Part shown: positions 2,703 through 30,303 of the stretch, piece by piece
Position numbering within the stretch: the stretch's first letter is position 1
How the letters are laid out: each line of letters starts with the position of its first letter
IMG/VR virus record: IMGVR_UViG_3300016643_000098
Coordinates: 1 to 30,886 of that record
Source: a virus
Taxonomy: Duplodnaviria; Caudoviricetes
DNA length: 30,886 nucleotides
Reading direction: 5' to 3' (one strand)
Program-made: the position numbers and the translations under genes
The notes under the pieces: model-generated
What the model was told of the DNA's origin: nothing
The model's database searches: none
The model's input: only the letters and a program-made list of their open reading frames with translations

Positions 2703-3042
2703 GATTGCAAAACACAAGTATGTGCGAAGCAAAAAGCTGTTGAAACTGACGGCGCAGCTGCCGTGCCAGTTATGCGGTGCCGAGCACCAGGTGCAAGCGG
2801 CGCACTGTAATTGGGGTGGCGGCAAAGGGTTTGGCATCAAGGCTGATGACAACCTGGTAGCGGCACTTTGTTATGAGTGCCATCATGACGTAGACCAGGG
2901 GCACCGGTGGTCAAAACGCGAACGACAGCAGGCATGGTGGTATGCCCACCGCAAAACCGTTGAGCGGTTAGTGGAAATGCAGTTATGGCCTGTTGACATT
3001 CCGTTGCCGAATGAGCAAGAATGGCATCGTCTCCTCACTTAG
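2695..3042 (+). CDS. Zn-binding HNH-like nuclease (DUF968/DUF1364/NinG-like)
   Basis: PCQLCG...AAHCN...GFGIKADD...LCYECHHDVD motif. Confidence 0.7.
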   Translation: MSEIAKHKYVRSKKLLKLTAQLPCQLCGAEHQVQAAHCNWGGGKGFGIKADDNLVAALCYECHHDVDQGHRWSKRERQQAWWYAHRKTVERLVEMQLWPVDIPLPNEQEWHRLLT

Positions 3043-3066
3043 CGGGCTATCGGCCCGCACTTTTTT
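3042..3066 (+). terminator. Putative intrinsic terminator closing the replication/nin block
   Basis: GCGGGC-tatcg-GCCCGC followed by AC and TTTTTT, directly after the stop codon. Confidence 0.55.
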
Positions 3067-3079
3067 GGCATATCATCAC

Positions 3080-3442
3080 ATGATGGATGATGACGCAGCC
3101 GAATTTATCGCCGCCTTGTTGCATAGCAGCACGGTGACGCATTTCATGCATTTATCGACGGATTCGTATTCCGCGCACAAAGCACTTCGCAAATACTATG
3201 ACAAGATCATCGATCTGACGGATGATTTTGCCGAAGCCTATCAGGGTCGATACAACAAGATCAAAGCGTATCCGGAAGAATTTCACATGAGCAAAGATCC
3301 TGTGAAATATTTGAAGACGATGCAGCAGTTTGTTGATGAGAGCCGCGACGATTTACCCCAAGACAGTGAAATTCAAAATATCATTGATGAAATTAGTCAA
3401 TTGATTGATTCAACCTTGTACCGCCTTAAATTTTTAGATTGA
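3080..3442 (+). CDS. Ferritin/Dps-like four-helix protein (DUF5856-like)
   Basis: THFMHLST..YSAHKAL..YY......DDFAEAYQG resembles the Dps H...D...E metal-ligand pattern. Start set at ATG 3080 (3083 is an alternative). Confidence 0.7.
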   Translation: MMDDDAAEFIAALLHSSTVTHFMHLSTDSYSAHKALRKYYDKIIDLTDDFAEAYQGRYNKIKAYPEEFHMSKDPVKYLKTMQQFVDESRDDLPQDSEIQNIIDEISQLIDSTLYRLKFLD

Positions 3443-3450
3443 AAGGAACG

Positions 3451-3681
3451 ATGATGAAGAAAGACAATGCAGAGATGCAACCAGCGGGTTATGGTTATGG
3501 CAGCAATGCCAAGATGCCCAAGGGCGCAGATGCAGCGGATGCCAACGGTAACCGCCGTGAGAAAGTGGTCAATGGTATTGGCATGGGCAAAGCCGATGGT
3601 GTGGGTTCCGACATGCCATTTGATGGCGGGCGCATGAAGGGCGTTTGCTATACGCATGAACGCAAGTCTTACCAAAAGTAA
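3451..3681 (+). CDS. Small Gly-rich hypothetical protein
   Basis: AAGGA RBS before ATG 3451; TAATG coupling to the next gene. Confidence 0.75.
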   Translation: MMKKDNAEMQPAGYGYGSNAKMPKGADAADANGNRREKVVNGIGMGKADGVGSDMPFDGGRMKGVCYTHERKSYQK

Positions 3682-4622
3682 TGGCTACGACATCGCTGGC
3701 TGACCTGGCAGGCAGAGGCCAGCAGCCGATACAGGCTGATTTAGCGGCGATGGTGCCGCAGCCGCCGATGAATGCTCCGATGGCCGCACCTATGGGAGGA
3801 GGCATCAATAAACAAATCGAGCAAGAATATTTTGATCGACTTGACAACGACTTTGAGGGTTTGAAGTCTGAGTATGCCCAGGTAGTCAATGCCCGCGGTG
3901 AGAATGTAACCGATGGCGGGCGAATCTTAAACACGGATGATGCGCGGGAGCTGTCACCGCACTATCGGGCAGACCGCACCAAATCGGCAGACGTTCACGA
4001 ACCAGCATCAGCGTTCGTTAAGCAAATGTATGCCGACAAACTGGCCAATCCTACGCCGCCAGGCATGGATAACACGGTTGTGTTCACGGCTGGCGGTACG
4101 GGCGCGGGTAAGACCACAGGTTTACAGCAAGCCATGGAAGTTGATCCGCGATTGGCGCAAGCGGAAATTGTTTACGATACAAACATGAATAAGTTTGCAT
4201 CTGCAGACCAAAAAATACGCCAGGCGCTGGATGCGGGTCGGAATGTGAGCGTGGTTTATACATTTCGAGATCCGACTGAGGCGTTGACGGAGGGTGCGTT
4301 GACGCGGGCCAGTAGGATGGAAGCAGAGCTTGGAACCGGTCGAACCGTGCCGCTTGATGAGCACTTCAAAACCCATGTCGGCGCGTATGAAGTGATGAAA
4401 CAACTTCAGGATCAATACGGTGACGATCACCGATTTTCGATGAAGATCATTGATAACAGCCGTGGCAGAAACCGCGCACGAGTGGTAAGCAGCCTTGACG
4501 AATTGCCGAAGTTGGATCATACTAAAGTTAGAAAGGAGCTTGATGATGCACTCGAAAATGCCTACCGTACCGGAAAAATTAGCCAAGCCATCTACCAAGG
4601 AACGCGTGTTAACGCCCGCTGA
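3681..4622 (+). CDS. Zeta-toxin-like P-loop kinase (apparently permuted)
   Basis: Walker A GGTGAGKT (aa 138-145), IVYDT strand, VSVVY...RA lid region, and an ILNTDDARELSPHY...VHEPAS segment. Confidence 0.75.
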   Translation: MATTSLADLAGRGQQPIQADLAAMVPQPPMNAPMAAPMGGGINKQIEQEYFDRLDNDFEGLKSEYAQVVNARGENVTDGGRILNTDDARELSPHYRADRTKSADVHEPASAFVKQMYADKLANPTPPGMDNTVVFTAGGTGAGKTTGLQQAMEVDPRLAQAEIVYDTNMNKFASADQKIRQALDAGRNVSVVYTFRDPTEALTEGALTRASRMEAELGTGRTVPLDEHFKTHVGAYEVMKQLQDQYGDDHRFSMKIIDNSRGRNRARVVSSLDELPKLDHTKVRKELDDALENAYRTGKISQAIYQGTRVNAR

Positions 4623-4716
4623 ACATCGCATGAAGCGCATGCACGACAAAAAGACGCAAGCCATGGCAGAGAGTATTGCGGCTGCGTTGAACCGAGCTGT
4701 TGTAGCGGGTAAGTAG
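4606..4716 (+). CDS. 36-aa helical peptide overlapping the kinase 3' end
   Basis: AAGGA RBS at 4597-4601 and GTG at 4606. It fills the gap and its TAG overlaps the next GTG. Confidence 0.5.
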   Translation: MLTPAEHRMKRMHDKKTQAMAESIAAALNRAVVAGK

Positions 4717-4919
4717 TGGTTAATTGCAAAAATTGTCGGTTTTTTGTGGCTGGCAATATTTTGGGGGTTTGTCGGCGTTATCCGGAAATGCACAATAAGC
4801 ACGAGATGGATTGGTGCGGTGAGCACTGTCCGGTGGTGACTGTAAAGGTGTATGACATCATGACCGATACCACGGTCGAAAAGAAGAGAGGAAGGCCGCG
4901 TGTTAAGACCGTTGCATGA
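4716..4919 (+). CDS. Small Cys-cluster (metal-binding) protein with KRGRPR tail
   Basis: C-x2-C-x11-C-x14-C pattern ending in DWCGE; C-terminal KKRGRPR. Confidence 0.7.
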   Translation: MVNCKNCRFFVAGNILGVCRRYPEMHNKHEMDWCGEHCPVVTVKVYDIMTDTTVEKKRGRPRVKTVA

Positions 4920-5160
4920 TCGCCTGGTGGTTCGCCCGACTGTTCGGCAGCTGTCGGATGTATTGGTGGTTAGAAACGACGAGCCTTTCAACGAGGGCGA
5001 AATTGTGGCGATTGGCCCGCGGGTACGCGATGCAAAACCAGGAGATCAGATTAAATATGGCAACGGTTCGTACTTGGATTGGCCGATCCATGAAATGGAC
5101 GGCCAGGTTTATCAGATCATTCAAGAAGCCGATGTAGCCTGTATTGTGGAGTCATCATGA
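4900..5160 (+). CDS. groES: GroES/Cpn10-like co-chaperonin
   Basis: LRPLHDRLVVR, GEIVAIGP, KPGDQI and IIQEADVACIV match the Cpn10 signature. Confidence 0.9.
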   Translation: MLRPLHDRLVVRPTVRQLSDVLVVRNDEPFNEGEIVAIGPRVRDAKPGDQIKYGNGSYLDWPIHEMDGQVYQIIQEADVACIVESS

Positions 5161-5429
5161 AAAAGCATGACAAGCCGATTCCACACACGACGACCGGCAA
5201 GGGCAAGAATTACAAGCCTACAGAACAAGGCGCTGGAATGACGGCCAAAGGCCGCGCAGAGTACAACGCTAAAAACAACGCCAATTTGAAGCCACCAGCG
5301 CCGAATCCCAAAACCAAGGCTGATGCTGGTCGCAAAGCCTCATTTTGTGCGAGGATGGAAGGTGTTGTTAAACATGCTAAAGGCCCAGCGACGCGGGCCA
5401 AAGCAAGCCTAAAAAACTGGAATTGTTGA
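5157..5429 (+). CDS. Small basic phage protein (DUF6321-like)
   Basis: GAGMTAKGR..YN....NLKPP and RKASFCARMEG motifs; Lys-rich. Confidence 0.7.
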   Translation: MKKHDKPIPHTTTGKGKNYKPTEQGAGMTAKGRAEYNAKNNANLKPPAPNPKTKADAGRKASFCARMEGVVKHAKGPATRAKASLKNWNC

Positions 5430-5439
5430 AAGGACAATC

Positions 5440-6033
5440 ATGCCAAATACACAAGCCATTGGTGTTGCCTACGCTGATCCATCATTGACGAGTTTTGAAG
5501 TAGGCACATCAGCTGTGCCTATTAGTGTGACCGCAGCGGGCAACCTGACACAGATTTATGCCACGGCAAGTCACACCACGGGCGATGCCCGCGGTTTATA
5601 TGCTCGCATGGACTTTGCAGCGGCGGGAGCTGGTGAAACGCTTCGTGCGTTTTCGAGGGTCACGGCAGCGCAGGGTTTGGGACAAACCACAAACGGTGCC
5701 CATGTAAGCCTATCAGTCAATACAGGCGGCACGATCAGTGGTGCGGGTAACGCGCTGCGGGCAACGATTGGCGGTTCATCGACCAATCCTGGTGGCACGT
5801 TGGCAGCGCTGCAGTTGGATTCAGATTTTGCATCGGGCGGTACGTGGTCAAACACATCGTTTTTGCGCGTGACCAACAGCGGCACCGGTGAAGTGGGCAA
5901 CTTTGCCGCCATGCCAGCGGTGAGCGCCACGGGTGTATTTCGCGCCAAGGTGGGAACACCGGCCTGTACGCATACGATTCCAGTCACCAGTGGTGGAACG
6001 ACTTATTACGTGATGGTCAGTACGATTGCGTAA
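5440..6033 (+). CDS. Putative virion decoration/fibre protein 1 (NTxxIGVAY N-terminus)
   Basis: AAGGA RBS; Ala/Gly/Thr/Ser-rich beta-type sequence. Confidence 0.6.
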   Translation: MPNTQAIGVAYADPSLTSFEVGTSAVPISVTAAGNLTQIYATASHTTGDARGLYARMDFAAAGAGETLRAFSRVTAAQGLGQTTNGAHVSLSVNTGGTISGAGNALRATIGGSSTNPGGTLAALQLDSDFASGGTWSNTSFLRVTNSGTGEVGNFAAMPAVSATGVFRAKVGTPACTHTIPVTSGGTTYYVMVSTIA

Positions 6034-6203
6034 TGGACATTACCCGCGAATTTATCGTTGAAGAGATGCGCCTGGTGCAAATTGAGATGGCGAAGGCGCA
6101 GACTTTCATGATTAAAGCGGAGACATCATTAGCAATTTACCGGATGTTATTGGAGCGCCTGGATCGACAGGAGACCATTGATAATTTTGGGGGCACTGAC
6201 TGA
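6033..6203 (+). CDS. 56-aa helical protein (not in ORF track)
   Basis: Hand translation MDITREFIVEEMRLVQIEMAKAQ...NFGGTD*; TAATG and TGATG coupling at both ends. Confidence 0.75.
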   Translation: MDITREFIVEEMRLVQIEMAKAQTFMIKAETSLAIYRMLLERLDRQETIDNFGGTD

Positions 6204-6367
6204 TGGCCAAGGGACTGTACGCCAACATTCACGCCAAGCGTGAGCGAATTGAAGCGCAGAAAGCCGCGGGCAAAAAGCCTGAGCGGATGCGTAGTCCAGG
6301 TGCGCCAGGTGCGCCAACAGCCAAAGCATTCAAGGAATCAGCCAAAACTGCCAAGAAAGCAAAATAA
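6203..6367 (+). CDS. 54-aa Lys/Ala-rich basic protein (not in ORF track)
   Basis: Hand translation MAKGLYANIHAKRERIEAQKAAGKKPERMRSPGAPGAPTAKAFKESAKTAKKAK*; coupled at both ends. Confidence 0.8.
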   Translation: MAKGLYANIHAKRERIEAQKAAGKKPERMRSPGAPGAPTAKAFKESAKTAKKAK

Positions 6368-7008
6368 TGGGCAATACAAAGTCTATTGGCGTTGCTTACA
6401 GCGACCAGGATTTAACAGGATCGACAATCACAGATCCTATCTTTGATTTTTCGGGATTGAGCGCAGTATCAACACCGTTGAGCGGCAGCGAGACCCTTGC
6501 ACTCATTCAGAGTGGCAGCACAAAACGCGCAACGGTTGCGAATCTGTACACCGGCATGCATTACGGCATGTTTCAGGACAATCAGACACAAACCAATGGT
6601 GGCGCAACCACTGCCAATGTGATGCTGATTCGCGTTACGGACTTTGCTAGCGGCATTTCTATTGCAAGCAATTCACGAATTACGATGAGCCGCACGGGTG
6701 TGTACAACATTCAGTTTTCATCGCAGTTTTCACGAGCTGGAGGCGTTGGGTTTTCCACAGTTGAAGTGTGGCTATCCAAAAACGGCACCAATGTGCCTGA
6801 GACCAACACACAGTTGAATGTGCCGCAAAGTGGTGGCAAAGCCGTGGCTGCGTGGAACTTTTTAGTGCAAGCCACAGCGGGTGATTATTACGAGCTTTAT
6901 TGGTCGAGTACAGATACAAGTGTGGAAATGTGGTATGCAGCGGCGGGCACCAATCCAACGCGACCGGAGACACCATCGATCATCTTGACAGTGTGTCAAG
7001 TCGGATGA
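6367..7008 (+). CDS. Putative virion decoration/fibre protein 2 with C-terminal beta-sandwich (C1q/BclA-like) domain
   Basis: N-terminus is paralogous to 5440; SRIT...TGVYNIQFS...WLSKNG...AGDYYELYW pattern. Confidence 0.65.
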   Translation: MGNTKSIGVAYSDQDLTGSTITDPIFDFSGLSAVSTPLSGSETLALIQSGSTKRATVANLYTGMHYGMFQDNQTQTNGGATTANVMLIRVTDFASGISIASNSRITMSRTGVYNIQFSSQFSRAGGVGFSTVEVWLSKNGTNVPETNTQLNVPQSGGKAVAAWNFLVQATAGDYYELYWSSTDTSVEMWYAAAGTNPTRPETPSIILTVCQVG

Positions 7009-29724: not shown

Positions 29725-30303
29725 TTACGCAGCAACTTTGCCTACGCTGTTGTATCCGTAACCGTCATCGCCAAGAAACGTGACGCGGTTGAACGTTTTG
29801 CTTTCGGCGGCATCAACTTCGCTGTAAGCAAAACACGCATCGTTCATCATGTTGCCGATGTACCGGTTGTCGAAGCCACGTTTTTGCGCGTCAGCGCTGA
29901 TGTTGATGGTGCTGACGTAAGCGCCGAATTTGTCATCGTTGATTTTGATGGCATCGCCAAGATCGTATTTGTCGCAAACAGATCCGGCGATAACAACCAA
30001 AGCAAAGTAGGAAAGTGTCCGGTTAACGAAAATGTAGTCAGCGCCGAAAGACACGGGCTGGCCGTCAAGGGCGCTGTAATTCGTGCCTTTGTAGTCGGTC
30101 ATGCCGCAGAAGTAAGAACCTTCGAACACGCCGACGATGGCTTTGACTTGCGCGGAAGACGGGCCATCGATGTAGGACACGTTGATGCTAGCGCCACCAG
30201 CGTAAACGCTGGATTTGACGCTGAACTTGACACCAGGGAATGCTTCTTTGAGTGCAGCGCGAACAAGTTTGGCGGTGTCGGCGCAACTGAGATACTGTTT
30301 CAT
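29725..30303 (-). CDS. LPD29 (large polyvalent protein-associated domain 29) protein
   Basis: AKLVRAALKEAFPGVKFSVKS...GASINVSYIDGP...F.GMTDY...FGADYIFVNR; AAGGA RBS. Confidence 0.8.
   Translation of the reverse strand: MKQYLSCADTAKLVRAALKEAFPGVKFSVKSSVYAGGASINVSYIDGPSSAQVKAIVGVFEGSYFCGMTDYKGTNYSALDGQPVSFGADYIFVNRTLSYFALVVIAGSVCDKYDLGDAIKINDDKFGAYVSTINISADAQKRGFDNRYIGNMMNDACFAYSEVDAAESKTFNRVTFLGDDGYGYNSVGKVAA

Follow-up and report, generated by a model that had tools for sequence, protein, structure and literature searches.

The streptococcal epsilon/zeta, PezAT (1GVN, 2P5T) and EzeT kinases have the canonical order of sequence blocks and are UDP-GlcNAc 3'-kinases whose product inhibits MurA, with a three-helix epsilon as partner, as set out in the accessible parts of PMC5923241 and PMC10532202. 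In ng_zeta1, the toxin of the ng_epsilon1/ng_zeta1 pair of Neisseria gonorrhoeae conjugative plasmids (6EPG, 6EPH, 6EPI), two sequence blocks have exchanged positions, a change described as 'topological rewiring' (Rocker 2018, PMC5923241). According to the accessible part of that paper, from which we also take the roles of the ng_zeta1 active-site residues, the enzyme phosphorylates UDP-MurNAc, UDP-GlcNAc and UDP-glucose at the C4'-OH, with Lys59 and Asn75 binding the lactoyl group of UDP-MurNAc, and the products are dead ends that do not inhibit MurA. A 2023 review of PezAT (PMC10532202) places ng_zeta1 in a distant clade and, in its accessible sections, has partners sought upstream. Polyvalent proteins have also been reported to contain zeta-like kinases, and phages to have them as fusions with MuF (Iyer 2017, PMC5512222); the accessible text of that paper makes no mention of the rewired subfamily, of an immunity gene or of an overlapping frame, and the words 'nested' and 'overlap' do not occur in the accessible text of PMC11964940. 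Titles and the opening lines of abstracts, with subscription papers outside the scope, yielded no relevant report of a nested zeta antitoxin or of a phage ng_zeta1 kinase.

The locus considered here lies in IMGVR_UViG_3300016643_000098, a complete virus record of 30,886 nt with direct terminal repeats, the whole of which we call the window. A Pfam and PHROG scan of the window found P22-like terminase, portal, coat, head-closure and DNA-ejection genes, a holin and an endolysin; the ORFs scanned, which took in a subset of the small ones, include neither an integrase nor a clear repressor. A kinase gene lies between a Nin-like region and the terminase. We consider it probable that this gene encodes an ng_zeta1-type kinase that phosphorylates UDP-sugar precursors of the cell wall or LPS, and that a 56-aa gene overlapping it encodes its inhibitor. 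The linkage of kinase and overlapping ORF is 1:1 across phages, Acidobacteria and plasmids, and in long genes the ORF is fully nested. What is new is this nested or overlapping partner and not the exchange of blocks, which adds nothing to the structure of 2018.

Fold and active site of the kinase

The kinase gene (3681..4622, plus strand) encodes a protein of 313 aa, P0001, with a disordered stretch at aa 1-42 and a kinase domain at aa 43-310 that contains D86, R89, K144, R209 and R221. The first-pass annotation had described a catalytic-Asp segment lying upstream of Walker A, and its reading frame and motifs hold: the catalytic-Asp and substrate-binding block occupies aa 82-110 (3924..4010, plus strand, with the D86 codon at 3936), Walker A, GGTGAGKT, follows at aa 138-145 (4092..4115, plus strand), and IVYDT lies at aa 163-167. 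The usual zeta order was also rightly given, since the canonical gonococcal zeta_2 runs from Walker A (aa 39-47) through VDAD (D67) to EGT (aa 113-115). In P0001, Walker A does not come before the D-x-D segment; the Asp block precedes the P-loop as it does in ng_zeta1 (alignment to 6EPH).

P0001 is a member of the already described rewired ng_zeta1 subfamily, and the segment swap is real and not new. Its AlphaFold model (mean pLDDT 83; aa 1-42 under 50) has ng_zeta1 (6epg_B) as best structural match by VIA, collinear over 252 aligned residues (Z 22.2, rmsd 3.3), and weaker matches to zeta (1gvn, Z 11.1), to the NAD kinase AvrRxo1 (4Z8Q, Z 11.0, rmsd 4.1) and to PezT (Z 10.2). With AvrRxo1 the zeta fold is held in common, at a much weaker level than with ng_zeta1, and PDB searches gave no sequence match between it and P0001. 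A phmmer search of the PDB returned one significant domain-covering relative, gonococcal ng_zeta1 (E 3.3e-7, aa 76-305), which was also the sole match of a 72-sequence kinase profile (A5; E 1.8e-22, nothing else at E 0.1). Hence the rearranged phage kinase proposed in the first-pass annotation stands, but its rearrangement had already been published (PMC5923241, accessible part). The annotation had counted collinearity with a known kinase family against a swap; the model is indeed collinear with one, ng_zeta1, which is itself rewired.

The canonical zeta kinases described above share with P0001 the nucleotide-kinase fold (Z 10-11) and a Pfam Zeta_toxin match, and are set apart from it by the features listed there. 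The best Pfam match covers only aa 161-246 (positions 96-177 of 199 in the profile), as expected for halves that are out of order. Against canonical zeta_2 the Asp block was undetected in a split-block profile search, with an hhalign probability of 1.1%, and the swap therefore rests on the collinearity with ng_zeta1 and on the published structural comparison (PMC5923241, accessible part). P0001 and ng_zeta1 have in common the order of the blocks, a collinear kinase domain, the catalytic Asp, the P-loop Lys, two phosphate-binding Arg and a partner of about 60 aa that is non-globular (for ng_zeta1, from the accessible part of PMC5923241). They differ in that P0001 is phage-encoded and lacks the C-terminal OB domain, at about 20-25% identity, and in that the partner gene is upstream for ng_zeta1, whereas that of the window runs over the 3' end of the kinase gene in the +1 frame and shows a motif resembling helix 1 only.

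The equivalent residues of P0001 and ng_zeta1 are D86 and D56, R89 and K59, S102 and N75, H106 and H79, K144 and K115, R209 and R175, and R221 and R181. Among 72 kinase domains with 30-74% identity to that of the window, D86, K144, D166, N168, R209, R221, H228, H232 and N259 are invariant (72/72), in agreement with the earlier assignment of D86 and K144 as catalytic; loss of D86 among homologues, named by the annotation as evidence against its reading, was not seen. R89, a conservative change from ng_zeta1 K59, is kept in 71 of the 72. The position of N75 holds Ser in 60 of these domains, Ala in 12 and Asn in none, and E131 of ng_zeta1 is replaced by Asp. Because the pocket differs at these three positions (N75 to Ser or Ala, K59 to Arg, E131 to Asp), the preference of ng_zeta1 for UDP-MurNAc may not carry over to P0001.

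As to the substrate, the first-pass annotation had offered UDP-GlcNAc, with a block of MurA, or NAD. The precedent of ng_zeta1 points rather to phosphorylation of UDP-sugars at the C4'-OH, which would drain precursors. We regard it as rather unlikely that the kinase-inhibitor pair is real and the substrate another nucleotide, either NAD-like as for AvrRxo1 or a defence signal, so that the kinase would be a counter-defence enzyme. Such a role would agree with the pocket differences, with the phage clade's own invariants (N168, H228, H232 and N259), with earlier substrate switches among zeta-fold kinases (PMC5923241, accessible part) and with the occurrence of relatives in polyvalent proteins with ddrB-ParB, LPD22 or SLT, which fits early host takeover. 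However, the phosphate-binding Arg and the UDP-MurNAc-contacting Asp, Lys and His positions of 6EPH are kept or conservatively changed, and the structural match to ng_zeta1 is far closer than that to AvrRxo1.

The N-terminus of the kinase was considered as a packaging signal of ejection proteins and rejected, its profile matching nothing else in 611 window frames or 213 long proteins. Some relatives (L024, L031-33, L058, L063) have longer N-termini with a G/A-rich hydrophobic repeat that recalls the pre-toxin segments of polymorphic toxins; a likeness to PT-TG noted by eye in L024 and L058 found no Pfam or PHROG support.

The overlapping +1-frame gene

The kinase gene had been described as stand-alone. 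It is not: of 72 close loci, window included, 4 do not reach the 3' end, and in all the others (68/68; 51 distinct ends) a conserved gene in the +1 frame overlaps that end of the kinase gene. In the window this is an unannotated ORF of 56 aa (4546..4716, plus strand), a putative antitoxin or immunity peptide, which overlaps the last 77 nt of the kinase gene and has a Shine-Dalgarno sequence (SD), AAGGAG, within the kinase coding sequence (4533..4538, plus strand), 7 nt before the ATG at 4546. Relative to the kinase stop, the start of the ORF lies 71-98 nt upstream and its end 85-118 nt downstream across the 68 loci. An SD match of at least 5 nt precedes the best ATG in 64/68 loci, as compared with 3/325 other +1 ATGs of the same genes, a comparison slightly favoured by the choice of the best ATG. 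In six loci (L002-L007) a stop codon stands immediately before the ATG of the ORF.

The N-terminal half of the 56-aa ORF is dictated by the kinase frame, and its conserved motif, a C-terminal helix-like h-x-x-x-L-N-R/K at about aa 38-52, is encoded past the kinase stop or, in other genes, within an unconserved linker. The window peptide has no match in Pfam or the PDB, and synonymous sites in the overlap show no excess of constraint (p 0.18, 9 sites). By analogy with ng_epsilon1, the ORF is likely the gene for a small helical inhibitor of the kinase that it overlaps. Partner genes that lie inside another gene in a different frame are familiar from phages in lambda Rz/Rz1, whose products are spanin subunits and not a toxin and its inhibitor; the overlap described here would be a natural case of toxin-antitoxin gene entanglement.

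A bicistron in the style of ng_epsilon1, with the antitoxin gene upstream, is not found in the window, where the constant partner is the one at the 3' end. A low-complexity ORF of 76 aa without a Pfam hit does lie upstream (3451..3681, plus strand), its stop overlapping the kinase start. It is present in 59/72 loci and kept only in the close clade, with other genes in its place in L012, L024, L031-33, L058, L063 and L066, and we rejected it as antitoxin or obligate partner, since divergent loci lack it.

Relatives in long phage proteins and on plasmids

A search with the kinase profile returned 1,012 clusters at E < 1e-30 and 2,643 at 0.001. At least 614 proteins of 549-2000 aa contain the kinase domain, which lies mid-protein in 111 of the 120 long matches listed and is accompanied by the domains named above. 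For the +1 frame we sampled 245 loci with the whole domain and 200 nt downstream, which form 74 clusters at 80% identity, and scored an ORF that starts 115-30 nt before the domain end and stops 60-260 nt after it. Such an ORF is present in 72/74 clusters, and in the +2 frame in 0/74, although the loci are related and the counts are not independent events. Of the short-gene clusters, 31/33 have it, among them 8 of the Acidobacteria type with identities of about 30%; in the long-gene clusters, whose proteins are often encoded among virion genes, it is wholly nested (41/41). Control anchors elsewhere in the long genes pass the same test in 710 of 3721 cases (19%). With an SD as an added demand, 141 of the 3721 anchors remain, as against 31 of the 41 long-gene clusters. 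A motif profile built only from residues encoded past the stop of short genes scores above 5 bits in 25/41 nested ORFs and in 0/243 control ORFs.

The two exceptions to the +1 test differ in kind. In L235 the ORF is present with a later start. L162 has no +1 ORF, and its kinase has lost R89, E90, S102 and H106 and has an N-terminus that by eye resembles a signal peptide. This gene (L162:4875-5750) is an Alcaligenaceae homologue with a degenerate substrate site, perhaps an exported, repurposed version.

Unlike the window gene, with its 313 aa and its place before the terminase, the long-gene relatives are embedded in long multidomain proteins among internal-virion genes. The large downstream gene, where scanned in long-gene loci, encodes the phrog_684 virion structural protein (9/9), and the phrog_418 internal virion protein is encoded upstream in two of these nine; from these neighbours, the long forms are likely ejected cargo. 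In a midpoint-rooted FastTree phylogeny whose deep nodes are poorly supported, the 21 short phage clusters, window included, form one clade (support 0.93) within the long forms. Since the short forms branch inside the long ones, they appear to have been excised together with the overlapping gene; the short form of the window would be one such module, still accompanied by its overlapping inhibitor.

Stand-alone kinases with an overlapping ORF of 62-68 aa and a strong SD also occur (L165, L167-L175, L178, L179), mostly on Acidobacteria contigs, some of them very large and chromosomal; the kinase of L178 stops early. A GenBank phage protein annotated as 'thymidylate kinase' (L266, MW202577, 2117-4753) has this kinase domain as its C-terminal end, and the helix motif recurs there in a +1 ORF (4707-4856), which scores 8.0 and 11.3 bits, reached by 0/300 shuffles.

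On plasmids, ng_zeta1 matches 96 records. Among the nine plasmid loci examined, epsilon1 lies upstream in N. gonorrhoeae and Eikenella, and the seven loci from outside the Neisseriaceae have no annotated upstream partner; each of the seven (7/7) contains, at the domain end, a +1 ORF with SD that is nested in the gene. A profile of these seven nested ORFs, with epsilon1 excluded, has ng_epsilon1 as its top match in the PDB (E 0.0026 of 177,635 sequences) and again when the 855 frames from the two Neisseriaceae loci are searched (E 1.4e-5; Eikenella epsilon1 E 1.3). The plasmid ORFs score 17.5 bits against ng_epsilon1, reached by 0/200 shuffles, and with a larger profile (A10) the PDB match to epsilon1 drops to E 0.081. 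These sequence comparisons make a strong case that the nested ORF of the plasmid branch is an epsilon1-type antitoxin. Unannotated epsilon1-like nested +1 ORFs lie at L258:4291-4554, L261:2291-2518, L262/L264/L267:1868-2068, L263:1910-2113 and L265:1889-2092, within zeta or polyvalent genes of Moraxella, Paraburkholderia, Burkholderia multivorans, Methylomonas and Sphingobium. In metagenomes, 22 of 36 loci cover the domain end; the +1 start lies at -89/-92 with SD in 13 and at -68 in one, four have a similar ORF from near the stop, one is of the gonococcal type and three have none in +1. Queries of the ng type had no matches among viral contigs. The gene for ng_zeta1 also has an open +1 stretch around the kinase-domain end (L259:12383-12613), which reaches from 179 nt upstream of that end to 52 nt downstream and has no epsilon-like tail; this stretch, which is not seen in Eikenella (L260), is possibly a remnant and possibly due to chance.

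The bridge from the phage peptide to epsilon1 is less direct. Profiles of the phage peptide (A2, A6) do not match ng_epsilon1, the window peptide does not stand out from its shuffles when scored against the ng-type profile (100/200), and the hhalign profile-profile comparison of phage and ng-type is weak (probability 1.9% and 7.7%). The tails beat 95% of shuffles in 8 of 23 ng-type cases and, in the reverse comparison, in 15 of 72 phage-type cases, shuffling being a lenient control for helices. Four Methylomonas loci (L263, L272, L276, L280) have the L-N helix motif of the phage peptide, and two of them lack the second helix of epsilon1, which helps to cover the ATP site and is also absent from the phage peptide. 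The window peptide is a putative antitoxin on the basis of shared position, frame, co-occurrence and weak intermediates.

That the +1 ORF is translated and yet has another function in the phage clade, as a virion or assembly peptide, as a device that couples the next gene or as a frameshift extension of the kinase, we judge to be improbable. The lack of a direct epsilon1 match for the phage peptide would suit such a function, as would the stop of the window ORF, at which, at position 4716, the next conserved ORF already begins. However, in long genes the stop of the ORF falls inside the long gene, where no further gene is available for coupling; the ORF has an SD of its own, and in L002-L007 a stop codon stands right before the ATG. 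It also accompanies the kinase into Acidobacteria chromosomes and onto plasmids, where the same slot holds the epsilon1 homologue, and it is absent from the one degenerate kinase, L162. It is very doubtful that the ORF only mirrors the codon usage of a kinase that stands alone: in this gene, chance yields an open +1 stretch of 25 codons in about 30% of cases, the kinase frame sets the first half of the ORF and synonymous constraint is not seen, but the position of the motif and the control comparisons of clusters, motif and SD all argue against it.

Proposed role and delivery

In the reading that we prefer, an ng_zeta1-type kinase paired with its overlapping inhibitor, the kinase would, by analogy with ng_zeta1, turn UDP-MurNAc, UDP-GlcNAc or UDP-glucose into products phosphorylated at the C4'-OH that lead nowhere. 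The peptide would cover the ATP site of the kinase as epsilon1 does, and so may hold the enzyme off in the cell that makes it. Virions would take up and eject the long relatives but not the peptide, so that the kinase would act in the next cell to be infected and the producer would stay protected. The window kinase, encoded in a late-looking cluster before the terminase, would most likely throttle host envelope synthesis during infection. The pair points to phages that attack UDP-sugar pools with a delivered enzyme, and a nested antidote would explain how a toxin against cell-wall precursors can travel as a cassette in ejection and polyvalent proteins without killing its maker.

For the family as a whole, we lean, if only slightly, towards the view that the rewired zeta kinases are a large family of toxins delivered by virions and plasmids, in which an epsilon1-type antitoxin ancestrally lay inside the toxin gene in the +1 frame and the upstream epsilon1 of the gonococcal plasmids is a derived exception. 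If this reading is true, toxin and antidote would be inseparable whenever the domain moves into ejection or polyvalent proteins, and only the toxin would be packaged and injected. Likewise, the apparent orphan zeta genes on plasmids of Burkholderiales, Sphingobium, Methylomonas and Moraxella would be complete toxin-antitoxin pairs, with the nested ORF, overlooked by annotation, supplying the missing antitoxin of many such 'orphan' genes.

P0001 belongs to no PHROG family, and tblastn with it matched 1 phage record and 0 plasmids. At most 0.10 of the words were present in RNA runs; those runs are contigs and therefore give no evidence of expression. Around the kinase gene, the window holds small conserved genes before the terminase (3439-7008) whose order is kept across related phages, among them the 76-aa ORF, a Cys-motif ORF that starts at 4716, a DUF6321 gene at 5157 and a basic 54-aa ORF at 6203; a DUF5856 ferritin-like gene lies at 2993-3442. 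At the other end of the window, a stand-alone gene for LPD29, a large polyvalent protein-associated domain (29725-30303, minus strand), lies in the leftward early operon together with the ERF and YqaJ genes for recombination.
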